Shown: positions 6,359-47,753 of the stretch, piece by piece
How positions within the stretch are numbered: position 1 is the first letter of the stretch
Layout: the number at the start of each line of letters is the position of its first letter
Assembly (NCBI GenBank): GCA_001938485.1
Contig: MQRK01176686.1
Location: forward strand, 1-50,757
DNA length: 50,757 nt
Reading direction: 5' to 3'
Source: Girardia tigrina
Taxonomy: Eukaryota
The notes under the pieces: model-generated
The model's input: the letters and a program-made list of their open reading frames with translations, nothing else
Database searches by the model: none
Told to the model about the DNA's origin: nothing
Program-made: the position numbers and the translations under genes

Positions 6359-6614
6359 AGTCAAGTAACCAGTCAACCTTATTCTAATGAGAAACCCTCC
6401 CCAGTAACAAGTAATTAATAAACTATTGTTTGGGACTACGTACCTAATTATCATTTAAGAGTACCCCTTAATCCAGTCATCTCGTATCGCTTCCTCCAAC
6501 TCCTCCAGTTGGTCAACTTCTCATACAAGTACTGACATTCCCCTAACAGGTGATCCAAAAGTCGATTCTGATATTCAGAAATTCATTGCAGCTCGAAACA
6601 AATTACGCCAATAA
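6359..6614 (+). CDS. KIF6: KIF6 last two exons (6359-6410, 6460-6614; 49-bp GT-AG intron)
   Basis: TTTTTCAG acceptor is phase-compatible with exon 379-517. The spliced product ends TDIPLTGDPKVDSDIQKFIAARNKLRQ*, matching the KIF6 terminal motif IPLTGD..xDxDIxxFIxAR. AATAAA at 6645. Confidence 0.85.
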
Positions 6615-6723
6615 CATTACTACTACTACTACTACTATTGTGACAATAAATCATTCTATTTATAAATAATTTCAGTGAAATAAAATGATAAAATTTATTT
6701 CGTATTTCAGAAAATAAATTCAT

Positions 6724-8325
6724 TCAATCCAAAGACGCCTCTTCATAATCTCTGATCATGTAGGCCAACTCCTCTCGACACAACTGAAACTCTTCTTCTT
6801 CAACTCCTTCTCCGACAAACCAATAGATGAACGCTTTTTTCCGATATAATAGCTCAAATTTTCTAATCACAGTATTCCAGGCGTCCTCTATTGATGTGTG
6901 ATTGGCGACCATACAGCAGGATTTCGGCAACTTGGACAAATCCGATCCGGCGACATGCGCTTGTTTGGAATCATTAATGTCCAGCTTGATTCCCGATGGA
7001 CACCAGCTGGCGAATTTCACTCGAGCCTTTACCAATTGCATCGCTCGACGGGCGTCCAGCAGTTCGACGTCACCACGGTAGAGCAAACAGGCGCTCATGT
7101 ATCGACCGGCCGATAAATCACATTTAACGAAACTGTGATCCCAGCGAAATAAATCCTGAGTTATGTCATCGATTTTCAACATATCGAATTTGGAATTATC
7201 GGTCGTAATAATCGGACTGAATGTGACCAATGGAAAGTGAAGTCTCGGATAAGCGATGAGATTGGTCTGAAATTCAATCATGTCTCCTTGGAGAGCTCCC
7301 TTGAATCTTAAAGGCGCTGTGATTCCGCTGACAACTTGAGAAATGAGCCGATTGATATTGCCGAATGACGGTCTCTGCACACCTAATTTGGTTCTGCAGA
7401 TGTCCCATATTGCCTCATTGTCCATGATGAATGACAGCTCGATGTCGGACAGACTGCACGATGTGGCCAACAAGGAGTTGTAGGGCTCCACAAGAATGTT
7501 TGTCAGTCTCGGGCATGGGAACAGAGTTAGCTGAAATTTGAAGGCTTTTCGGTAGATATGGTTGACGTGCTCAAGAAGAAGAGTAAAAAGTCCCGAGCCA
7601 GTTCCGCCACCAATACTGTGTGTGAATAAAATGCCTTGAAGTCCGCTACATAATTCGACTTGTTTTCTAACTTGTTCGAGAACGGCATCGAGAATTCGTT
7701 CTCCAAATCGATTATGAGCTCGACCGTAATTATTCGAGGAATCTGATATTCCATGAATCAATTGATCTGGATGAAACAGATTTCTATACGAACTTTTCTT
7801 TATCTCATCTGAAAATCAAAGAGAAATTTCATTAAAATTATTGAAGATAAATTATTCTTTTTTACCAATAATCGAAGCTTCTAAATCAATAAATATGCAT
7901 CTTGGAACAAAACGCCCAGCACCAGCCTCATCATAAACAGAATTAGTTGCCAAATCTTTAAAGGCGTGTGGACCTTTAGCTAGGCCTTCAACGTTAATAT
8001 TGTGCTCTTCATTAAATAACTCCCAGTAACTTGTGCCAACTTGACAACCCGCTTGACCAAGATTTATAAAAATAATTTCCTGAGACCTAGGCTATAAAAT
8101 TATGTTTACTAATCCATTTGTTAAATTCTTATAGAATAGATTAATATTATTATAGATTATCCAACTTGGAGTAAATTATATAACTACTATAAATAAACTT
8201 TTATAAAAACTAAATTATCTTGGAAATTACATATTAAGAACATTTAGACAAGTCTCGTTTGAATTTTTATTACAATCACATTTAGAGTCATTTTGACTCT
8301 CAGAAAGTCTTTCATCGTTTGCCAT
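6724..8325 (-). CDS. Divergent alpha-tubulin; exons 8325-8231 (tentative), 8086-7866, 7808-6724
   Basis: LGQAGCQVG, FVPRCIFIDLE, LFHPDQLI, HSIGGGTGSG, VEPYNS, DNEAIWDIC, EFQTNL..YPRLHFP, WFVGEGVEE; GT-AG intron 7809-7865. The first exon is inferred from an open frame and a phase-2 GTAATT donor. Confidence 0.92.
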
Positions 8326-8621
8326 CGTTCTAATTGGTTTTCTTATTTCTATTTTTAATCATGATTATTCGAACAATTTTTCTAAATTATTTTTTAAAAT
8401 ATTTAACCTCTAAAAAATATTTATTAAAAATAACAATTTTGACCATCTCTCAATAAAAACACAAAATTATAAAAATGACATCAAATAATTAAAAATGAAT
8501 TTTATTTAAATTTTATTAATTTTATTTGTATCTAATTAAATGTTTTTTTGTCTTAAAGAAATATTAAACTTAATTTTAATTGTTAACTTAAAAAATGTAA
8601 ACTTATCAAATTATTATTTTA

Positions 8622-9626
8622 TTAGGTGTACAAGTATGAAATGCGGATTTCAGAAAACGGATTGTGCACAATGCAAAAAGTAGGTCAATGGTTAGGCAAT
8701 GATGTCATAATATTGAGTAATTATGTAGTGTNNNNNNNNNNNNNNNNNNNNNNNNNNNNNNNNNNNNNNNNNNNNNNNNNNNNNNNNNNNNNNNNNNNNN
8801 NNNNNNNNNNNNNNNNNNNNNNNGGTACTAATTTTTTGTTACCATCTAAAGAAAACTGCTGCTGAATCATACCGATTACTCCAAGAAGCTTATGGTGAAT
8901 ATGCCCCATCGTAAGATACATGTGAACGATGGTTTCGGCGCTACCATGGTGGTGACTTTGATATTGCAGATAAGGACCATGGGAAACCACGAAAAGGTTT
9001 CGAAAATGTGGAATTGCAAGCTTTGTTGGACGAAGATGATTCGCAAACACAAAACCAACTGGCAGAGCAATTAAGTGTTACTCAACAAGCTGTTAGCAAT
9101 CGCCTCAGGCAGATGGAAAGATTCATAAGATCGGCCGATGGGTATCATATCAATTGAACGATAGGCAGATGGAGAGTCGCAAAACCACTTGTGAAATCTT
9201 GCTTGCACGATACAAAAAATACCTCAAAAAGCAACACAAGGTTATTCTTCTCCATGACAACGCTTCGTCACATACATCAAAACCGGTTCGCGCCATGTTG
9301 GAGGAAATGAATTGGGAAGTTTTACCTCATGCGGCATATTCACCAGACTTGGTTCCTTCAGATTACCATTTGTTTGCATCGATGGGTCACGCACTTGCTC
9401 AGCAGCGCTTTGATTCTTACGAAAATGTGCAAAAATGGATCGATGAATGGTTCATGGAAAAAAAGGAAGACTTTTACTGGCGAGGTATCCACAATTTGAG
9501 ATATAGATGGGACAAATGTATCATTAGTAATGGAGCATATTTTGAATAAAGCTTTTTTTATCGTTCTTTTGTTTTTAACGTATTTCTTTTCAAAATTTAA
9601 TCCGCATTTCATACTTGTACACCTAA
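8622..9626 (+). mobile_element. Internally deleted mariner, mauritiana (Mos1-like) subfamily
   Basis: Perfect 28-bp TIRs TTAGGTGTACAAGTATGAAATGCGGATT with TA on both sides; ELQALLDEDDSQTQNQLAEQL, LNDRQMESRKTTCEILL, HAAYSPDLVPSDYHLF; the region with the first catalytic D is deleted near 9219. Confidence 0.95.
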
Positions 9627-9725
9627 TAATTATGTTCGAATAGTCAATCATTTTAAACATTAAAAAGTACCAATTTCCATCTGGGAGATAGAATCGCCCT
9701 TCTAAATTCAACATATATCATCAAC

Positions 9726-10692
9726 CAGTGTTCTCGACTCGAATCGCGACTTAAGTCTTCAAATCGACTCGACTCGAAAAATTATTAAAGTGATTGGACT
9801 CTCGGACTCATTAAAAACATTGATTCGACTCAATAAAAATTAAACTGACACGAATTTTAAATGTTTCTGATTCACTGGACTCGAATTTATTGACAGACTT
9901 TAAAATTTAGTAAATATTAAAATCAAATTTATAATATTATTAACAGTAATTATTATTGTCAATTGAGTGTATAAATGTTTTAATTTAACTTTATAAAGCT
10001 TCATGTTTTTTTTCATCTTAATCGTACATTTTAGAATTTTAAATTAAAAAAATGTTTTAAAAAAGTTTATTATTTATTTTTTAAGATCCCATGTTGATTA
10101 ACAGTAAGCAAAATCATTAATGTTTACTTGGTTAAACCACGTCTTTCTATCGGAAACAAATTAATTAATAAATATTCATAAATTAATTAATAAATATTTA
10201 TTATCAGAATAAACATTATTAATATTATTTAAATAATACTAATTTGGTTTTCCATAATTTACTTCATCTGTATTTCTTTTATAAAATATTCCAAATTGAA
10301 TGTTATGGAACAATTGTTTGAGTTATTGTATTCCCATTTTATTATTGATTTAGGCGGGATTATTAAAAAAAATTGCCAGACAAATTTATTACATCAAATA
10401 ATATAAAATTAATTAATTAATATTCATAAATTAATTAATAAATATTAGGGTTTGGGTTATGGTTAATATATTTAGTGTCTTTACTTGTGAAATGTAATTA
10501 AGAGTCACTTGACTCGACTCTTTACTCGTAAAACGTTTTAGAGACTCGACTTGTAAAATATGTCAGGTGAATTGACTCGACTCGTGACTCGTAACAAATT
10601 TTAGCGACTCGACTCAAAACTCGACGCGCAAAATATTTAGGGCAACTCGATTCGACTCGAGTAAAGAAAATAGTGACTCGACGACAACAGTG
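9726..10692. mobile_element. Non-autonomous hAT-like element with GACTC subterminal arrays
   Basis: CAGTGTT / AACAGTG ends; 6/8-matching flanks TCATCAAC / GCATCAGC; clustered GACTC(G) repeats at both ends; splits a copy of the repeat also seen at 20268 and 39945. Confidence 0.65.
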
Positions 10693-11242
10693 GCATCAGC
10701 ATTCACACATTCAAACAATTAAAAATATTCCTCACAAATAGGATTTTTGAAACATTTGTCAACAAGTTGATGTACATAACGCCGCACTATGTCGTGTTTT
10801 TCGTCATTAAAACTGAGAGAACTTATATCGGCGCCGCGTGTTAATTTTCACAAAAATTTGTACATGTCAATTATTAACTCAAAAATATAACAAAATATAA
10901 GTTTTAACAAATTTAACAAAGGAAATGTTACTGGCCGAGTTTACATAGTTCTCATAAATCCTTGTGTCCATCAATATGTTAATATCATAATTAAAATTAT
11001 CTTCATAGCGATTCTTATCATAGTCCTCCGTATTTGACATCTTTTCGGGTTAATTAATTTCCTTCCTACAGTTTAGCTCTATTAAGGAAACATTTTTTGT
11101 CTGTGAGCAAAAGTGCCAGATTGGTACATGAATGCATTCGCACCATGTTTCGGACCGAAGCCTTCCTAAACACTGCTGTGGTTTTCATTGGGGTTTACTC
11201 ACGGCCTTACCCTGCACCTATCAATTGGATGATCGTTTTACG

Positions 11243-11575
11243 CTAAGCCCAACACTTATCCTGTGATGATGAGTTCATAGAATTTGAGTGAAACTCTTCC
11301 TCCCATGATGAGTTATTTTCATCCTCACACGAGTCTCCAACCCACCTCCTATATGGGAAAGAGACTTCTTCGTTCTCGGATGATTCATGGCCTTGGATTT
11401 CATCCTCTTCCTCCCCTTGATGCATTTTAATCATATAATTGTGTGATTGTAAGAGTGTATCCAGGGCGGCTGGATCAAAGTCCTCAGTGACCTCAGATTT
11501 CACATGTTCATGTTCCATCTCTTCCATCATGAGCTTTGATTCATGGGGCTCTTTCTTTATTGTGGAAATACCCAC
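11243..11575 (-). other. Orphan acidic ORF within a GC-elevated island (10740-12180) of unknown origin
   Basis: 110-codon E/S/D-rich ORF; TATA-like GTATAAATA on the minus strand near 11767-11775; no recognisable domain. Confidence 0.3.
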
Positions 11576-12199
11576 GACAGTGACCTTTGTTCGTTGTACT
11601 ACCTGTGTGGTAATTAACAGGGACTGCGTAAGTCATCGCCTTGTGATAGAAATACAACTTACTATAATTCAACCTCCCCATAAACAGTGCCATGGAAGGT
11701 AACTGTAGAAATTAGACTTCTCGCAAAGTGACCAGCACCGCTTTGTTTTGTCATTCGTGTGTCCAGTATTTATACATTAATATTCTTAGTGTTCTGAACA
11801 CACTGTCCTTCAGGAGGGTGGAAGCAGTATGTTATAATTCGTTTCATCTCTTATAGTCATAGTCTCCCCATTTGGAAAAGTCCTTTCCAATACAAGGGAT
11901 TGGTGGAGATGAAGACACATTCCTTATTCGTTCTGCATTATACTTACATGAATCTGGTACAGCTTTTTAATCTTATGTATGATGAACTTGATCTTCCCCG
12001 AAGTTGTTCCTGCGTTGAGCCAGTCTAATTCCGCCTCGTTCGACAGGTGATTCAACTTTCGGGACCTGTTGCACCTCTCTGGAGGGAGAAGATCGCCACA
12101 TCCCTTGTGACTCTGTCACAACACGCTATCATCTAGAAACTGTGGGCCAGGGATTGAATCAGGCCCTCATCTAGTACTGATTTTATTCCTAATCCCATT

Positions 12200-12830
12200 T
12201 TCCCTAAAGAATTCGATCTTGAAATCAACAAATACTTTTTAAATTTAAAATATTATATCTTAATCATTTCAAGTTGTAAATATTTTTTTGCAATAAATTG
12301 CATACTCCTTTAGGTTTGTGTTCGGACATGGTGTATCAATACACATGTAACGGTGCAAATGTCACATACATCGGAGAGACTGCCCCTCATCTCGGCAAAC
12401 CAGTCCAATGACACATTCAAAGAGGAAAAAGAGTAATATTTCTGAGAATAAAAATGCGTAACTGTAATATGAGCATAAATGATTTTAAGATTTTGTGCAG
12501 GCATTTTAAAAATGATTGGGAGAGAATGTCATGTGAAGCATTGTTCATAAGATCATGTGATCAAAAATTCCATGTTCAAACAGCCCTCGTTACTAATATG
12601 TTAAGAATTTTCGATTAGACTTACGAAAGCGATTGCATAATCATTCATTTCTTATATAAAAGCAGTAAAAAAGAACATAATCAGTGATCTGATGATGACG
12701 GTTAAACCGTCGAAATATATTATCGAAACATATATATTTTAAATGGCGTTTATTTGTTTTTAAAAAGATTATTGTTTATTATGGATGTGGAAATCTACAA
12801 GAAAACGAGTTTGTATTAATTAGTGGTCAC
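12200..12830 (+). mobile_element. Penelope-like retroelement 3' fragment (GIY-YIG endonuclease plus pseudo-LTR)
   Basis: Degenerate MVYQYTCNGANVTYIGETAPHL ... DFKILC ... CEALFIRS ... HVQ, followed by a hammerhead motif. Confidence 0.8.
12685..12725 (+). ncRNA. Minimal type I hammerhead ribozyme
   Basis: TGAT-CTGATGA-T-GACGG(TTAAA)CCGTC-GAA-ATATAT(palindromic stem III)-T-ATCG. Confidence 0.7.
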
Positions 12831-13164
12831 TACAGAGACATTTTACATTGATTGTTGTCATATATATTTGTTATCTATATGTTTTCATAAATATTATCAG
12901 TTTTCCTGTCACATCTTTCATTCATCTAATTTTAGTATTATTGAAAATTCATGAATTTTTGATAACTGTCAAAATACGTTTTCTAGAGCAATATATAGCA
13001 GTATATTTATAGCATTACATATATATCAGCATTTTATCTTTATAAATAATTTTAAATTTTAATTCATCTATAATATTGGATTTTATATAAATAGTTTGGC
13101 TAATTATCCAATTTAGTGCAAATATTCGTTAAATAATTATATACTTGAAAAAGATCGATCATAC

Positions 13165-13470
13165 ATTACGGGTGCGCTGAAATTTCATCTTTGAAAGTTT
13201 CTACTTTAATTTTTAAATCGTAATTATTGTAATTAATTATTTCGAATTCTGTGTTGATTTAAAAGTCGATCAATTTCATCGGTTAACCGGCGTCTTTCGG
13301 CGAAGGCACTGCACGAAGAGAACCGTCTCGATGCGGGCTATCTAGATTGACCACATCTTTAGGTGGATTCACTCTGGTTTCCTCGAAATTTCACATTTTG
13401 ATCATAGCGTAACCGGCAAACTAACACACACACTTTTTTGACAAATATAATATGTTTAGTTCAATATTTA
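13165..13470 (-). mobile_element. Non-autonomous Helitron family A copy (3' end eroded)
   Basis: Clear similarity to 23682-24062 and 30381-30720 (TCTTTGAAAGTTTCT..., GTCTTTCGGCGAA..., CCGTCTCGATG core). Confidence 0.7.
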
Positions 13471-14004
13471 AGCAAGTGTGATGAATCATCCGGGGATGGA
13501 AAGTTCTAGAAATATTTTACGCTTTCTACCGGATAAAGTCAACAATGTAATTGCATGTGCGCCAATGCAATTTACGTTTGTACAAGTACAGTCGAAGGAG
13601 GCTGATGCTCTACAGTTAAAACTGAAATTTAACTGATAATATGAGCCAATAATTCATCTGGAGAAAATAATAACTGATATATAATTTATAACACTGTAAG
13701 ATCGATTTACTCCAAACAATAAACCTCCAAATTCGCACAATTGCATTCAAATGGAAATATAAATAAATTAACAGAGAAAATTAAAAAAACTGAATAATTA
13801 ACAAAAACGACTAATGTGAATCAAGCTGTAGACTTACCAATTCGATCGACATTTTATCAATAATAAATATATTTTATTGAATATTATGATGAATTATGTT
13901 TATTAATTGTTTGACGTTTATGACTAGCAATTAAATATTAATAGCTGCTTTACTTTTATTATAATCTTCATCTGCTGTTCTTTTCATATTTAACTTACTT
14001 TATA

Positions 14005-19165: not shown

Positions 19166-21329
19166 TCATAAAATATCTTTAAAACAAAGAATATCAAATT
19201 CGTTTCGTATAATCTCTTCTCCGAAATATGGAAATCTTCCAAAAGATTCTCCTTGTAATAATTTACCCACAGCAATTTCATTACCGATGAAACTACGAAC
19301 AATGAAAACCGGCTTCTTCCCGCCGTATCTACCAGCAATCAAAAACTTCCTCGTTCTTGGCAGCTCTCCTTTTTCACAATTAATCCATTGAAAACTGAAA
19401 TTATGATCCATAATTAGAGAAATAAAAATCGGAATAAAATTTTTTCAGTAAATTTAACAGACTTAATATAATTATAAATTACAATTTTATTTAATTTCAG
19501 ACATCGAATGATTAAGTGATCCCTAATATGTTTAGCCGATGAACCCTGTGTAACATTTAGATATCTACCAGTCAGAACAATAACTATCCCATGTCCAGCT
19601 TCAATCTTAAAAATGTAATTAACTATCATTTTACATGGTCCTTCATACAATGATATACAGATTTAGATAAATATAATGGATTAAATCTCTAGATAACATA
19701 AGCCTAGTGGAGATGGAATCGAGTTCTAATAATGTTGAAGGCCATTAAGTGTAGCAGGTATAGAATATTATTAAGATGGAGGTACATATTAATTAATTCC
19801 TAGGTTGCAATACACTTTTGACGGAAACGTTACTAAAAAAATAATCAGATGAAGTCTTTGATATTTGAAAATAACTAAGAGACAGATGAACTTCGCCCAA
19901 TTACTGCTGGTCTAAATAGTTTTAAATTTTTAAGAATTACTTTCTAATTTTTTTGTCCTTATCCAAAAGATATTTTTGCATGAATCTTTCGAAGACTTTA
20001 GAATAAATTTCACAATCAGAAATTCAATTTGGTCATTATCACATAATAAAATTAAAAAGATTATTGTTATCAAAAATCTAAGTTTTCAAAAAAATAAAAA
20101 TAAAGATATAAAACATGACTGAGGGGTTTTTATTCATATTAAAAATTTGTGGTTATCAATAATTATTAAATAATTAAATTAAAAAAAATATTGAAAATAA
20201 GTTAAAATATAAAAAAATCTAATTAAATATGTTGCAGTAATCGCGTGGGAAGAATACATGAATGAGGATTGTGAGGAATATTTTGAATTGTTCGTTGTTT
20301 TATATTGTGCATGTTGTATGTTGATTCGAATTGTGTCTCTCCTACCCAGGTGGATGATTGGTATTTACTTTGATTCCCACTAATTTAAAAAATAATTTAA
20401 TTTAATTTTAAAGTAAAGAGATTTAAAATATTTTTCAAATATAATTGTTAGAAGACAAAAGATCTGCATTAAAATATATTTAAATAAACTAAATCGCAAA
20501 CACACATACATCAGTTATATACAGAATAAATGGAGAGTCAAAGGTTAACTCTACTCTCGACCCCGTAATAGTTATATAATACAAATTTAGAATTATTCTA
20601 AATTTGTTGATTGCATAATATTTTATTTAATTAATTTAAATTTAATTCTATAATATCTCACAATAATATTTAAATTTTCGAACGTAATATTTAGTTTTTA
20701 ATGTAATTTAAAATTTTAAAACATTAATTTATTTAGTACTTTTTTAAAAATGTTTAGAATTAATTTTAACCAATTGGAATCTTTATAATTAATTAATATT
20801 AATAAATATTTTTCATTTATTTTAAAATTTATGATGAATTTTAGTAATATATTAATCAAAAAAAATGTCGAATAATCAAAGTGGTTTGAATAATTATTGT
20901 CATGAAAACTCTGGTTGTGATATTAATAAATGTTTAAAAAATCATATTGATGTTGTTAATAAGGATGAAATAAGTGTTGATTCACTCCTATTTTATATGA
21001 ATATCTTTCAATTAAAAATTCATATTTCTTAACATTTAACAATATTTATTAATTTCAAAGTAAAACATCTCAACTTACGATTTTCCTAAACTTTTTATTG
21101 CCGTAAAACACAGAATTTCAAAACGGGAAAAAATTTCTTCTCTTCCTTTTAATGGAACAAATGCTGCTTGATTATCAGGAAATACTTTGCCAATCGTGTG
21201 TTCGTTGTTAATAAACACTCTGGCAATGTATACATCTTTTCCTGCTTCGAAAGCGGTATAAGGTAATTTAGGGCCATTGCATGGTACCCATGAAAATACG
21301 CATTGGTAACCCGATTTGTATAAACTCAT
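19166..21329 (-). CDS. Tandem DM9-repeat protein (DUF3421, lectin/natterin-type), ~159 aa; exons 21329-21079 and 19394-19166
   Basis: Two DM9 units (WVPCNGPKLPYTAFEAG..VYIARV..GKV..E..FEILC and WINCEKGELP..AG..VFIVRS..VGK..PY.GEE..FDILC) joined in frame by a GTAAGT donor (21078) and a TTTCAG acceptor (19395) with a CTAAT branch-like site. Confidence 0.85.
20268..20365. repeat. Short interspersed repeat (possible LTR fragment); also at ~39945-40022 and split around 9670-10737
   Basis: Shared TGTGAGGAATATTTT; CTCTCCTA..CAG.TGGATGATT shared with the 39945 copy. Confidence 0.5.
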
Positions 21330-21417
21330 TAATACACAGTAAGTGATAATATTCTGCAAAATTAATTTATTATGTAAAGTGTTAAATTATTTGAATAAAT
21401 TTATAAGAATACACATA

Positions 21418-31993: not shown

Positions 31994-34556
31994 TATATTA
32001 TTAATAATTATTTACAGATTCCTTTTTATTTAAAAATAATTTTGAATTTGTTTTATTAATTATTTTAATTTAAATAATTATTATTTAATTAATTTATTAT
32101 TAATTATTAATAAGTATTTATTCATTCATTTTTATTCATTAATATTTATTAATTTGTTTTTAATAATTATTTTAATTTTTACTTGTAATTAATTATTAAA
32201 TTGATTTTTTAATTTATTAAATTTTAATTTTTTAATTTAATTTTTTTAATTTTTTGTATGTAATAATTCTATTATTATTATCTACCTAGAATTGTAAGTA
32301 GTTGAATTATTATAATTATTAATATATTTATTAATTTTGTAGATATTAATATATATTTTACCACGTTTTTCTTAGCTTGGTTTCTTGTATGTCTGTCTGG
32401 AACAAATCTTGCGATTGATTTTTCGACCACTTTCAGTCATCCAATTGAGCTGAATTTTTTTATACAGGCTTGCTTCTGATGACAATACAATATTTTAAAA
32501 CATTTACTTTACGGATGTACGGAAAAAAATAATAAATTGAACAAATATTGTGAAAATCAAGTGATAATTAAGTGTAAAAGTATTAAAATTAGGTTTAAAA
32601 GTTATTTTGAAATAAAACTTGCTTTTATTAAAATAAAACTTTGTTATTTTGGTTTTATTTTCATTTCTGTTATTCGAAATCAATCGAAAGATTTGAATTC
32701 CTAAATGATAACTAAAAATANNNNNNNNNNNNNNNNNNNNNNNNNNNNNNNNNNNNNNNNNNNNNNNNNNNNNNNNNNNNNNNNNNNNNNNNNNNNNNNN
32801 NNNNNNNNNNNNNNNNGGTATAAAATTTCTCACATGTCTAGAAAAAAATTATTTTCCTCTTTTTAGTGCATTGGTAATGCTTGAAAAACGTGGTTGTTTT
32901 TATAAAAAAAAATTTTTATTAATAATATTATTTTTATTTAATTATCTACTTACAATTTTAAGTAGATTTTCAAGAGTCAGACAGAAACAAACAAACCTTA
33001 GGTAAATATATAAGTTATTATTATTAGTGGAATAAAAGCAAATCATATTGTGTATAATTCTCTGTTAACTGAAAAAAAGAAGCTTTGTAATTCTGTGATG
33101 TCCCATGATCTTATTATTATTTATGATTATATTTTGATTTAATTTAATGAGATTAAATTATGATCAATGTTTGTGTGAACAAGTTTTTGTATCAGGAAAA
33201 ATATATTAGTTTCATCACAAGTTATTGTATTCAAAAAAATTGTTAGTGCTTTTAAAAAATTAAATAATATTTTTTTTATTATTTGTTTAAATGCAAAAAA
33301 GTAGTGTTATTTTGAGTAGTAAGTTGATTTTTGTTATTTAAACGAAATAAAAAGTTTTGATTAGGGCTTGTAACTTTTCGAAATAATATTGCGTTTGGAA
33401 CTTGATAAATACCAACATGGGGTTTGCGATTCCCTGTCTCTAGAAAGCCGGGTTCCATGTGGGTATTGCAGGCTACGGTCGTCTCGGAGAATCGGATCAC
33501 GTGGGAAAACAAATGAGTCAAGACATATTGTTTTCCACAGTTCCCCGAGGCAGGAGCTGCACTGGTTACGCTGCAACTTAAAGATCTTTGTGGTGTTTAC
33601 ATTCATCCCAAGAGTCATGTTCAATTTATTTACGTTTTTACCTTTGTTAATCATCAGCTTAATCTCGGATCTTCATGATTCGTCTCATAGGTTTATGTAT
33701 TTGTTATTTTGTTGTTGATTAGATGTACTTTGGTTTTTTATTGATGAAAAGTAATCCTTCCTTTCCTTCCTTATAATCATAACAGAATTTTTTTAATTTT
33801 TATTTTTTAAATGTGCAATTTCATATGAAAAAAATTAATATGAAAATATGTATATATATGTATATATATATAATCCAATAAACTCAACAACTTTAGTTTT
33901 ACAAATGACATGATCACCCGGAACTTTAGTCCAGTGATGGAAATTATGTAAATTATTGACTTACAATATTATTAATAAAACAATTATGTGGGTCACAGAC
34001 AAATTTGTAGAGTCTCCTTTGTTTTATGTTCTGTGTCTCGGTAGATATGAAAAAAACAGAGACTTTTGCATCTGACAGACAGAACGTTTTGTGGTCATGG
34101 TCCAGACTTTTAGTCGCATGTTTCCAACGACTCAAACCATTCCTGACTCTGGTTTTATACTTTATCGATATCAATTTATATTTTATATATTATATACATA
34201 TATTATTTTTACAGTTAAAATTTTAATCTCCTTAATATAGCACATTTACATACAGAAACTAAGTGGTAATATATAAATTCAGGTTCACAATATTTATTCC
34301 GAACCTCAATTGATGTTTAGGGTGTTTTTATTGTTTTCCTCGTCTACTTGAAGAGAAACTTTATTTTTTCTCGTGCTAAAACAACAAAACATTTTGTCAT
34401 TGGTACTTTATTTATAGATAAAAGTACAAGGGTTACATTAGCATATCATCAATCATCAATGGAAATAAAAGATTAAACACCAATGGTAAACAAGGTAAAC
34501 CATTAATAATAAAACAGGGCGTCGTTATATTTGGATATTTTATCCGTTAAATAATT

Positions 34557-35528
34557 ATGTTTATTTGTTTATATTATATTTTTGCCACATTTATTTTATG
34601 CATGAACGGACTTGGCGATTCCGGTCAAGGTACCGCCCAAAGAAATTTTTTCCGATCTGTTTTATCGGTTAATAAATTTGTGGATTACCGGCGTAAATAT
34701 TCGGGAGGAATACCAAAAATAATACATTATGTGTACCGAACGGCCTACATTCCTAACCAGTATTCGCCTCACATTAGGCATTGTATGGACCTTAATCGCG
34801 ACTCTCAGTTTATATTATGGACAGACTTTTCAGCATATCAGTTTATAATACATCATTTCCCGGATTCTCTTGGCTTATACAGCAGTTATTTCGAGAGGTC
34901 GGCGGATCTTCTGAAAGTTTCCGATGTGATTCGATATTTTATTTTATATAAATTCGGAGGTATTTATATGGACCTAGACACGAAATGTCAGAAATCATTT
35001 CATCAACATCTAATGAATTTATCTTGTATTCTTAGTAAAGAAGTTGAAGAACAATCGAGAATTTTATGGGACGTAAAGTATCTTGCAATGAATAGTTTTA
35101 TGGCGTGTATACCCAATCATGAGTTTTTCAAATATCTCATTAACAAAATTGGAAAGATTGACTCAGGATGGATAGTAGCGACTACAGGTCCATTGTTCCT
35201 GACTAAATTGTTTGACTTGTACAATACTTCTTTACAAAACATTACATATACTCCCCAGAAATCCGTATATGTAGTAGATTCCTATATATTCTCTCCTTTT
35301 ACTGAAACCTTTCTCGAATCAAGATGTCAAGGATCGGTGGTTGGGAGCATGAGAATTTTAGGTTGTAAAAATCTTGCAAATCATCGTAAAATGCAACAAG
35401 AGAAAACAAAAGACGCGATTGTTGTCCATCTATTTATGCATTTGGGTTATCATTTTTTAAAACATTTGATTCAAACAAAGGAAAATGCCTTTATGTCCAT
35501 GGATAATCTGACTGTGGTTTCCACATAA
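34557..35528 (+). CDS. Glycosyltransferase family 32 (DXD sugar-binding; OCH1/SUR1-like), single exon
   Basis: Hydrophobic N-terminus, IPKIIH, SDVIRYFILYKFGGIYMDLD, NSFMAC.PNH.FF, TTGPLFLT; intact 323-aa ORF. Confidence 0.88.
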   Translation: MFICLYYIFATFILCMNGLGDSGQGTAQRNFFRSVLSVNKFVDYRRKYSGGIPKIIHYVYRTAYIPNQYSPHIRHCMDLNRDSQFILWTDFSAYQFIIHHFPDSLGLYSSYFERSADLLKVSDVIRYFILYKFGGIYMDLDTKCQKSFHQHLMNLSCILSKEVEEQSRILWDVKYLAMNSFMACIPNHEFFKYLINKIGKIDSGWIVATTGPLFLTKLFDLYNTSLQNITYTPQKSVYVVDSYIFSPFTETFLESRCQGSVVGSMRILGCKNLANHRKMQQEKTKDAIVVHLFMHLGYHFLKHLIQTKENAFMSMDNLTVVST

Positions 35529-43556: not shown

Positions 43557-46082
43557 TTATGTGTATGTATATATGTAATTTAGAAACCTATTTTTGAAGG
43601 CCTTCTACTCAATCGATTTTCTCCGATATTTGCACACTTACTCATTCTCGATGACAATAAATGATTATGTGAGAATTTGATCGAAAAAAACTTTTTAAGA
43701 TCCAAAAATGGGAAAAACGGAAAATTCAGAGTTCCCGCACAATATTAATTGCAAGATATCTATTTATAAATTATAAGTAGTTTATATTGTTTTTTTAATT
43801 AAAATTTTTTAAATCTTAAATTTTTAAATTTTAAAAACTTCGTTGGCAAAGTACAATTCTGCCTGCATAAAGAATGGATATAAAAATTTTATTTTTTTGA
43901 TTTACTAGCTTTAAAATTAAATGAAATTGCACTTAAATTTTCTGTTTGAAATGAAAGAAGAATAAATAAAACAAAATTGAGAATTATTTTAATCATTATA
44001 ACTAATATTCAAATTAGTTAAAAATATTTTAAAAAATGGAATAAATGTCAAAAATATGTGATTACTACAGTTTTGAAAAATCGTGTTAAATGAAAATATT
44101 TTTATAATTGTTTACTAAGAAAAATTCTATGAAGAGAAATTGAAAATAATTTGAATTTTTAAAAAAATGATTTTTTGTTACAAATCGATATCTGATTTTC
44201 GAAGGCATTAAAACTTCTAAAAATAAGTAACTTATCTACTGCTAATTTGTTAATAAATTATAATTGTACGAGCGTTACACATCAATAAACCGAGTAACTG
44301 ACACAAATGGGATTTTATAAATATTATTTTATTTTTTATTATATTATTATTATGGAGAAGGTTTGTTAAGATTTAGAAGTTACATTTTTTGATTTTGGTC
44401 AAGTAGTTTCGGAGTTTTGTTATTTTCCCGTAAGGGAAACATATAAATTTAATTTTAAAAAAGTAAAGTTTTTGTTTGTATTGGATCGGAGCAGGACAAC
44501 TGACCACAAGATTTAGTTTATAATTTTTTTAAGGATTATTTTAGGATTGTAGAAAATTTTAATTAATTAATTCACAAAGATCAAATATCAAGTTTGAACA
44601 CAATGACAAAAATAAAATTTTAAGGATTAGTAAATTAAAGCTCGTATTTTTATCTAATTAAATGTTTAATCATAAAAAATTAAAGTTATGAGGAATTAGT
44701 TAATCTTCGAAATTTAATTATTAATTGAATAAATTATTTGGATTTAAAACCAAATTTATTTTAAATTTTATGTTAGCAAAAAATGAAATTTAGTGTTTAA
44801 AGTAGAATAAAAATGTAACGGAAGATGGTGACAAATAATAAAATTAATTTAAAAATTATAGTCACCAATTTTTACAATAAAATAAAAACAATTATAATGA
44901 CATAAAATTGAATTTGTGACGAGTTATCGCGTACCCGTACAATTGATTTGTAAATAATAACTCTGATGTCACTCATTTAATAAAATTTTAAAATTATATA
45001 TTGAAGAGTTAATTCTTTTCGTAATTTATATTCTTTAATTATGAATTTTAATTAAAAAGAAGAATATGTTTAATATTTTATGAATCATTTTATTAATGTT
45101 TTAATTATGTGGAATTAATGCGATTATTATTCTTTCAGCATTGTAATTCTTTTTTTATTTGTAAAACTTGTAAAATTGAATTTAAATTATCATTTGCAAT
45201 GAAATTAAAATTTGATTTTTCAACTTTCTTTTGTTTTAAATTGTGTTTAAAACTAAATATATTTTATATTTATAATTTTTTAAGTATCAAAGCATCGATG
45301 TAAAAACATTCGTTGTCCCTTTGAAAAAGAGTGATGGGGGGCTTCTAAAAACAATTTTTTCATTGTCCTTAGGCAATTATAACTAATGTTTGAAATGTTT
45401 TGTGTGAAATAATTGATTGTTGTTGATTAAATTCGTTAGACCTTGCACAATATCACGCTTTTTCTAGATATTGTAACCAGTGCCACATAATTGTTACAAC
45501 AAACATAAAAGAAAAACGAACTTGATAAACAAAATAACAAAAAAATTCAAATATCATTTATCAAATCAAATCTTGTCGTAACGAATTACATGTCACGTAT
45601 AATGCATTCAATAACACAAAACATTTCAAATGAACACAATATACCGGTTATTACCAACAATTGAGCATAGGCACCCTTTGATACTTAAAAAATTATAAAT
45701 TTAAAATATATTTAATTTTAAACACGATATAAAACAAAAACAGAACGAAAGTTGACAAATCAAATTTTAATTTCATTTTCAAATGATAATTTAAAAATAA
45801 ATAAATTCATAATTAACAAATTTTTAGTTCTCTTAATATTTTAATTTTTAACTTTCTACAAAACTGTCAAATATTTTTAATTAATCAGTTGAAAACGATT
45901 ACTTTTTTATATTTATTTTTTAATATAAGATTTACTCTTTTCTTCTTAATTTTATACTTTAATAATAATTGAAATAACGTTTAAAAATGCTATTAAAAAT
46001 AAATGAATTTTAAACCAATTAAAATATTTGGTAATAAATTAATTATCAAACTAGTTGTCATATAAGTTTTATCGCAATAATT

Positions 46083-47753
46083 ATGTATAAAATGTCTGAT
46101 TACAAATTAGAATGTTCTATTTGTTTGGATTCAATGGACCAGTTTAAAGAAACAGCAACGACTGAGATATGTCAACACTTGTTTTGTGTCTCTTGTTTAC
46201 AACGATGGTTGATCGAAAAGCCGCTCTGTCCTCTTGATCGGATTGAAGTCTCAAAAATTAAAGTTTTCAACACAGAATTGGATATGTTTGAATATATTCC
46301 TTTGAAGTCTTTCATTTTATCACACTACTTAGAAACAAAACAAATAATATTTAAAAGTTATATGAAAACCTTTTCTGGAATTATTATAGAATTCAGAAAA
46401 TCTTTAAAACAGTTACAAGCACTAAAAGAAGATTGTGAAAAACTTTACTCAAAATATGGAAAAAAACAATTTCACTTGGGGATCGATTCTTGTTCTTTAG
46501 AGTCAGAGAGGAAGCTGGAAGAGTTTCTTTCTTCTCTCAAACAAATTATATCAAAAAATGATATTTCTGTGAATACTTACGAGAAAGAAATCTATTCGAA
46601 TAGGAAATATTTAAAGGAAGAAGAAAAAAATTTAAGTAATCATTATATTAAATATTTTTCAGGTGATAATTTATTTGAGGCGTTCCACTCAAATGTGATC
46701 ACCTTTGTAGGATTTATCAACTTGTTGGACGAAGTAAATAAATATTTAAATCAAATTGAAGGATTTTCCAAATTGGTTTTAAAAACTGTTTGTCATGAAG
46801 ATTTGAGAAAGAAAGATCAAAGGTCAATGGAAGGTCTGTACGAAGAAGCGGAATATAAACTAATTAATCTAGTTGATCTTAGTAGTCGTTATATAAAATT
46901 CATAAGATCAATCTTTTTAATAAAAACCATTCAAGAATGTGTTGAAGTAGATTGGTCGGACGTGTTTGAAGATTGTGACAAGAAATGTTTGGTTTGTGAG
47001 AATGTGGAAGAAAATTCCGAGTGTCAGTTTGAGAATTGTAATCATAAAATATGCTCTCTATGCTCGACGATTTTCGATGTAAAAAACATTTATTGTCCCT
47101 TTGAAAAGAGTGATGGGGGGCTACTAACATCGAATGTCGTGAAGAACATTGAGACATTTTTAATTGGCCAGCATCATTCCTTGATCAAAGACTCAGTTGA
47201 CATTATTTTAGAGTTTATCTGTTTCATAATAAAATACATGTCAAATATAATCATCAACAATAAATTAAATGTATTTTTATCTAATATTCCAACATTTGGC
47301 AATTTGTTAAAATTAGTGTCAGTAAAAATAAGCCTGAGGTATCTGAAAATGATTAAACTATTTATATGTCAAAAGTTAAATTGGAAACGATTGTCATTAA
47401 AATCTCAAATAAAAGTAGAGTCATTGTTGAAAGGGACAATGTTTTTTGGGATTTTATTAAATGATGTCCATAAGAAGTTAAATAAACTATCGAAATTTGA
47501 AATTGCGTATTTAGAAAATAAGGACGTTGACATTCAAAATCAATATGAACAAATGTTTAAAGATTTAGAAAGAGAAATAAAGGAAAGTTGTGAGAAATAT
47601 TTTGGAATGATCTATGAAGTATCTGAAGCATTCGGCTTTTATTACGAATTTACGTTAACACAAAAAATACAAGGTGCTTACTTTAATTTTTTAAGTTTTG
47701 TAAACCCTGCTCAATTTTCGATACTATCAGAACTAAATATTTCAGAAGTTTAA
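46083..47753 (+). CDS. Single-exon protein with two RING-type zinc fingers, each followed by a helical region (putative E3 ligase), 556 aa
   Basis: CSIC..CQHLFCVSC..W..CPLD at the N-terminus and CLVC..CNHKICSLC..CPFE mid-protein; long intact ORF in very AT-rich DNA. Confidence 0.85.
   Translation: MYKMSDYKLECSICLDSMDQFKETATTEICQHLFCVSCLQRWLIEKPLCPLDRIEVSKIKVFNTELDMFEYIPLKSFILSHYLETKQIIFKSYMKTFSGIIIEFRKSLKQLQALKEDCEKLYSKYGKKQFHLGIDSCSLESERKLEEFLSSLKQIISKNDISVNTYEKEIYSNRKYLKEEEKNLSNHYIKYFSGDNLFEAFHSNVITFVGFINLLDEVNKYLNQIEGFSKLVLKTVCHEDLRKKDQRSMEGLYEEAEYKLINLVDLSSRYIKFIRSIFLIKTIQECVEVDWSDVFEDCDKKCLVCENVEENSECQFENCNHKICSLCSTIFDVKNIYCPFEKSDGGLLTSNVVKNIETFLIGQHHSLIKDSVDIILEFICFIIKYMSNIIINNKLNVFLSNIPTFGNLLKLVSVKISLRYLKMIKLFICQKLNWKRLSLKSQIKVESLLKGTMFFGILLNDVHKKLNKLSKFEIAYLENKDVDIQNQYEQMFKDLEREIKESCEKYFGMIYEVSEAFGFYYEFTLTQKIQGAYFNFLSFVNPAQFSILSELNISEV

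Follow-up and report, generated by a model that had tools for sequence, protein, structure and literature searches.

An expressed, tail-less alpha-tubulin gene of Girardia tigrina and the divergent family around it

Few animal proteins are as conserved as alpha-tubulin. The window analysed here, a stretch of 50,757 nt from the flatworm Girardia tigrina (contig MQRK01176686.1, assembly GCA_001938485.1), encodes an alpha-tubulin that shares less than half of its residues with a canonical paralogue and ends before the acidic tail. Is this gene a duplicate in decay or an isotype in use, and does it stand alone in its genome? A preliminary description, made from the letters of the window, had read it as a specialised isotype that escapes the tubulin code. 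Nature here offers a test of the purpose of the tail: an isotype without one that is expressed and constrained at 46% identity.

Gene model and neighbourhood

The gene has three exons on the minus strand and a product of 441 residues with the N-terminus MSIEL. The features of the window are:

13838..13864, minus strand: exon 1, with at least 12 nt of 5' UTR, the ATG at 13852, five codons and a GTAAGT donor; placed by 26 letters of the X1 contig
8092..13837, minus strand: intron 1, 5,746 nt, phase 0, with transposon remnants inside
8232..8621, no strand given: dispersed repeat of about 390 bp within intron 1, including the earlier-proposed start at 8325
7866..8091, minus strand: exon 2, canonical residues 2-76, T1 nucleotide-binding loop retained, rewritten K40 loop at 7954-8007
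7809..7865, minus strand: intron 2, 57 nt, GT-AG, phase 1, in codon 76; joint 7808-7866 in 4/4 runs (X1-X4)
6724..7808, minus strand: coding part of exon 3, with GGGTGSG (7591-7611), E254 (7273-7275), H11-H12 and the stop (6724-6726) at canonical residue 438
6681..6723, minus strand: 3' UTR, 43 nt, AATAAA at 6694-6699, poly(A) site at 6681
6359..6410 and 6460..6697, plus strand: last two exons of a convergent kinesin-9-family gene, stop at 6612-6614; joint 6410-6460 in 3/4 runs, poly(A) at 6697 in X3
19166..19444 and 21075..21386, minus strand: DM9-repeat frames (Pfam PF11901)
34551..35528, plus strand: single-exon DXD glycosyltransferase (PF04488)
46038..47753, plus strand: RING-finger frame of 571 residues (PF13639)

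The spliced tubulin contigs come from runs X1-X4, which belong to one sample of one study; their RNA nature is presumed and backed by splicing and poly(A). Run X5 added a single 239-nt piece at depth 2.3, and run X8 exon pieces without a tubulin joint. These contigs replace the single intact reading frame of the preliminary description by a spliced gene. The 57-nt intron is removed in all four runs, the minus-strand open frame at 6724-7815 holds 363 residues, and the tubulin N-terminus sits in a separate upstream frame.

The start moved as well, from 8325 to 13852. An ATG at 8325 would give a 31-residue extension; it was rejected as lying inside the repeat and outside the tubulin contigs, which stop or leave the window sequence at 8091-8092. 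The repeat has 1,356 first-look candidates genome-wide (40 scored, 81-93% identity) and a very high summed read depth. The contigs of X3 and X4 end at the edge of exon 2 and that of X2 extends 7 letters past it. The 26 letters of the X1 contig beyond exon 2, the sole basis of the joint between exons 1 and 2, match exactly once in the window. A trans-spliced leader as the source of the start was discarded because these 26 letters map to the genomic exon at 13838-13864.

Both intron positions correspond to those of canonical paralogues, where a phase-0 acceptor immediately precedes codon 2. The site of intron 2 is identical, and intron 1, measured from the conserved core, is shifted three codons upstream. 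The gene is thus a genomic duplicate and not a retrocopy.

The 3' end decides whether a tail is added at the RNA level. Poly(A) at 6681, just behind the AATAAA, was present in two of the four runs (X2 and X3, as poly(T) loose ends), and the contigs of X1 and X4 continue into the transcript of the convergent neighbour. None of the four runs (X1-X4) contained a splice joint inside exon 3, and the 824 nt downstream held no acidic frame ending in Y or F. With both introns spliced and poly(A) 43 nt past the stop, the transcript gains no tail exon. The contig ends, the poly(A) and the downstream frame scan rule out a tail acquired by splicing or read-through. The preliminary description had named missing transcripts and a spliced-on acidic tail as its critical points: spliced, polyadenylated RNA contigs exist, and they carry no tail exon.

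At their poly(A) ends the transcripts of the tubulin and of the kinesin-9-family gene share 17 nt (6681-6697), and 109 nt separate the two stop codons. The kinesin assignment comes from an upstream exon, with its end at 517, that matches Pfam KIF9 (PF23735, E 1.4e-13). In run X4 only, splicing links this exon end to an AG acceptor at 6711 on the plus strand. The joint would give a 14-codon alternative last exon antisense to the last 10 codons of the tubulin; seen in one contig, it could be mis-splicing. The kinesin exon region is also duplicated (1-290 and 421-710) on both sides of an N gap, which is probably an assembly artefact.

Protein anatomy and constraint

The protein is an alpha-tubulin by domain content and by all trees built, in which it clusters with alpha-tubulins. 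Pfam assigned Tubulin (PF00091, E 3.4e-28 and 2.8e-13) and Tubulin_C (PF03953, E 3e-32). The 60 best PDB matches displayed were all tubulin chains, alpha-named except two rows named only 'tubulin'. Identity is 46% (200/434) to the canonical alpha paralogue L010 and 33% to the beta-tubulin L070. The GGGTGSG motif is exact, and the DMIEFQTNL segment keeps the alpha-specific catalytic glutamate, both as first described; beta-tubulin has a lysine in place of this glutamate. Among the residues that we take to form the N-site, 18/27 GTP contacts are identical to canonical, including Q11, D69, E71, D98, N101, E183, N206 and N228.

The modification sites have gone. The protein stops at DYEEASLD, six residues after Y432 and 13 short of L010, without acidic tail or EEY; this end, canonical residue 438, is also that of many tail-less constructs in the PDB list. 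The K40 loop, in which canonical alpha-tubulin has PSDK, is two residues shorter than canonical and has no lysine at position 40, while two lysines are kept at other positions. The MREC N-terminus of canonical alpha-tubulin is the TTC5 motif. Its absence, noted before the start was corrected, holds with MSIEL and an N-terminus that is 7 residues longer.

The surfaces differ in how far they have changed. In the residue sets that we take to form each surface, identity to L010 is 16/34 for the intradimer face, 19/38 for the interdimer face, 11/32 for lateral contacts and 16/35 for the outer motor face. Longitudinal changes include P325L, K326L, N329R, T349S, H406Y and a 2-residue deletion near 338. 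With half of these longitudinal residues changed, assembly into a normal lattice is not assured. The M-loop shares 2/13 residues with canonical. An AlphaFold2 model of exon 3 alone (43 sequences, mean pLDDT 50, pTM 0.33) was uninformative because the first 80 residues were absent from it.

Polymorphism and an orthologue show how the sequence is maintained. All six coding differences between runs X1-X4 and the genome are silent; as 22-31% of random changes would be silent, the probability of 6/6 is 1e-4 to 8e-4. A seventh difference, from the one depth-2.3 contig of X5, is a non-synonymous D to N change, and 6/7 silent still has P 6e-4 to 4e-3. The orthologue P0001, recovered from Logan, is 79% identical, retains E254 and is likewise tail-less, ending DYEEASEN at the same residue. 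Of 379 hits drawn from 2,736 candidates, no other protein exceeded 50% identity. No second orthologue was among the 150 matches listed by a search of 1.84 billion representatives, and the trees contained no trematode protein grouping with the gene.

The two orthologues have in common 133 of the 191 positions that differ from canonical. Between them T3 (10/10), T4 (9/9), T7-H8 (23/24, with 8 shared derived residues) and H11-H12 (32/39) are conserved; variation is greatest in the M-loop (5/13), H9 (8/13) and H3 (13/21). Constraint thus appears to act on nucleotide binding and head-to-tail contacts, with the side contacts relaxed or changed. The end branches of the gene and P0001 (0.12 and 0.15) are similar to those of other orthologue pairs. 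A broken frame, lost introns and neutral change, as expected of a pseudogene or retrocopy, were all absent. As far as sequence comparison can tell, purifying selection maintains this gene, an intact duplicate of genomic origin. Transcripts, the lack of a tail exon and 6/6 silent polymorphisms support the earlier term 'specialised isotype'.

A large family of divergent alpha-tubulins

The gene is not alone. A genome search with exon 3 scored 113 of 424 candidates; all matched, and stops lay inside 8 of the 113. Loci were obtained for 86 of the 113 places, the 27 omitted having the same score as a fetched place. Alignment over more than 300 residues succeeded for 77/86 loci and gave 62 distinct cores. 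After removal of four beta-tubulins and three partial or duplicate cores (L036, L064, L076), 55 alpha cores were left. The genome therefore encodes at least 55 distinct alpha-tubulins, 10 near-canonical and 45 less than 60% identical to L010; the frame of one divergent member, L080, is broken. Pairwise identity among the 45 is at most 87%, which argues against haplotype copies. Further intron-rich alpha paralogues and divergent beta-tubulins are present, so these counts are lower bounds.

The divergent members vary at two sites of functional weight. E254 is retained in 14/45 and absent in 31/45, where it is replaced by Q (14), V (8), H (2), a gap (2) or A, N, I, D or S (one each). Tails of 30-731 residues after Y432 occur in 41/45, as measured on genomic stop-to-stop frames without RNA check. 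Proteins from other records match several of these extensions (P0288 and L065, 66% over 930 columns). The six residues of the gene studied here form the shortest tail of all 55, followed by L071 with 9 and L012 and L015 with 11. L012 (G000:C53583) is otherwise a near-canonical alpha-tubulin (74%) with E254S and a basic end of 11 residues.

The claim of an escape from the tubulin code stands as a description of the protein and falls as a trait of this gene alone. Of 28 different exon-2 sequences in the genome, 10 begin with REC and 8 have a lysine at position 40; loss of MREC and K40 is thus the rule among divergent members. The missing tail alone sets the gene apart from its paralogues, some of which bear K40 and EEY. 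M-loop variation is common among them. Divergent beta-tubulins (L090-L095) are 47-82% identical to the canonical L070, and L090 and L091 have extended C-termini; they are possible partners of the divergent alphas.

FastTree trees of 80 and 96 rows contained supported E254Q-rich and E254V-rich subfamilies (loci in the range L022-L081) and many one-to-one pairs between paralogues and proteins from other records. L048, L057 and L065 formed a clade (support 100) with proteins of 956-1,052 residues from Calicophoron, Fasciolopsis and Paragonimus. The gene was put among the long branches. A mixture-model tree of 40 chosen rows united 16 long-tailed paralogues and three trematode proteins in one clade (SH-aLRT 96). 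Outside these 19 rows lay the gene and P0001, whose stem measures 1.2 changes per site; they share an open fork with L012, L019 and a starfish sequence. L012 has the top share of derived residues (10/70) and was considered as sister, but was not accepted given this fork.

The genome also holds 31 scattered COX1 matches (L087-L089 and 28 places). Most are interrupted by stops or frameshifts, as would be expected if they were copies of mitochondrial DNA in the nucleus. Compared by eye with conserved COX1 residues, they fit table 9 best, in which AAA encodes Asn and ATA encodes Ile. This code and the grouping of the divergent tubulins with trematode proteins mark the genome as that of a flatworm, and nad4 adjoining cox1 makes a triclad likely.

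Nine alpha-tubulin genes are listed for humans (PMC12838686) and five alpha-tubulins are reported for Fasciola (PMC4404566). In openly accessible papers, supplements aside (planarian testis transcript lists there may name many tubulins), the literature search met with no account of the gene and with none of a large family of divergent alpha-tubulins among free-living flatworms. The same search gave no report of an animal with 45 or more strongly divergent alphas, nor of E254 being lost widely in nature. Each loss has a precedent; within this literature, the large divergent family and the widespread E254 loss appear new. Engineered tubulin with E254A or E254D forms very stable microtubules (PMC7018511). 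Set against such engineered mutants, a family in which 31/45 members naturally lack E254 carries more weight than the single gene.

Proposed role and known systems

With gene structure, expression, constraint and family established, we infer pairing, polymerisation and tissue as follows. The gene rather probably encodes a tissue-restricted isotype that pairs with a beta-tubulin and becomes part of a specialised array of microtubules, with the male germ line as its most likely site. The near invariance of T3 and T7-H8 across the orthologues suggests a product that would stack head-to-tail and could still prompt its beta neighbour to hydrolyse GTP. Side-to-side contacts would be rewired or relaxed. 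Having no tail, the protein would go unseen by detyrosination, glutamylation, glycylation and CAP-Gly readers, so that these signals would be diluted or blanked where it is built in. The sperm reading draws, indirectly, on two features of flatworms: six planarian TTBK paralogues are testis-enriched, with TTBK-d acting in sperm and cilia (PMC6743461), and the sperm have 9+'1' axonemes and peripheral microtubules (PMC5811217).

A somatic isotype, in motile cilia of the epidermis or protonephridia or in neurons, is an unlikely competitor. The gene lies tail-to-tail with a member of the kinesin-9 family, which has a ciliary role; this adjacency is no evidence of shared function. Motile axonemes normally rely on K40-bearing, tail-modified tubulin, and paralogues with K40 and EEY are available for them in the genome. 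One forkhead-like motif precedes the ATG by 52 nt, no more than chance would give (0.21 per strand in 548 nt). The promoter scan contained no exact X-box and one match with a single mismatch, again at chance level. The service of TTBK-d in cilia as well as sperm speaks for the somatic reading (PMC6743461).

Slightly less credible still is a tubulin-fold protein outside the normal 13-protofilament lattice: a cap, a scaffold of single protofilaments or sheets, or a part of a sperm structure peculiar to flatworms, for instance the central core or intercentriolar body. The M-loop (2/13 with canonical, 5/13 with the orthologue), longitudinal loops frozen in a derived sequence and the stem of 1.2 changes per site would fit such a role. 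M-loop variation is however widespread among the paralogues, and H11-H12 is conserved (32/39 with the orthologue), as expected of a lattice surface that faces motors and MAPs.

A relaxed duplicate drifting towards a pseudogene, suggested by 46% identity, several lost conserved sites and broken tubulin copies elsewhere (8/113 matches with stops), is highly improbable and largely refuted by the intact 441-codon frame, canonical splice sites, poly(A), 6/6 silent polymorphisms and a 79% identical orthologue with ordinary end branches.

On the reading as a tissue-restricted, array-forming isotype, enzymes appear not to be alone in setting microtubule surface and stability in this lineage: the choice among genes, from tail-less to 731-residue extensions and with E254 kept or lost, appears to do so too. 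A wider and more tentative proposal, plausible although less than evenly so, is that flatworms have replaced much of the enzymatic tubulin code by a genetic one, in which dozens of alpha genes hard-wire tail chemistry and GTPase state. The two-thirds without E254 would build lattices that are GTP-locked and hyperstable, probably for 9+'1' sperm and their cortical microtubules. Among animals they would be the first large family of natural origin to do so. The gene described here would be its tail-less, still-catalytic member. Flatworms are amenable to RNAi and single-cell work, which makes the multi-tubulin hypothesis and the make-up of 9+'1' sperm directly testable.

Known systems share parts of this picture. 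Canonical alpha-tubulin (TUBA1A/1B type; L010; PDB 3j8x_A and 9eok_A) has the same Pfam domains Tubulin and Tubulin_C, GGGTGSG, E254 and intron sites, and aligns to residue 438. The gene is 46% identical to it and differs by rewritten lateral loops and the lack of tail, EEY, K40 and MREC. A Caenorhabditis alpha-tubulin (P0002) likewise does not start with MREC. TUBAL3 of the tenrec Echinops telfairi (P0040) also ends just past H12 (DYEEVGQSF) without an acidic tail, but is far less divergent (branch 0.21 compared with about 1.3 for the gene). It is sister of the gene in no tree, which argues for convergent tail loss.

The 'divergent group' of ciliate alpha- and beta-tubulins likewise combines lineage-specific long branches with a conserved ancestral set (PMC11321004). 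These are protists, and the account of them in PMC11321004 that we draw on reports neither E254 loss nor tail remodelling at this scale.

Other likenesses come from flukes. Fasciola hepatica alpha-tub5 has Asn at position 40, lacks the terminal Glu-Tyr and the E445 glutamylation site and has a 5-residue N-terminal extension (PMC3820024). Compared by this description, it shares with the gene the losses of K40 and of the terminal EY and an extended N-terminus. The fluke set described there comprises five alpha isotypes of 72-95% mutual identity, not dozens (PMC3820024). Long-tailed trematode alphas from Calicophoron (CAL8104465.1, CAL8087692.1), Fasciolopsis (KAA0185139.1, KAA0189647.1) and Paragonimus (KAA3680494.1), related genes that have so far not been studied, cluster with the divergent paralogues of this genome. 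They carry 63-594 residues after the core, whereas the gene is tail-less and lies outside their clade in the mixture-model tree. Their clustering indicates that part of the radiation is common to parasitic flatworms.
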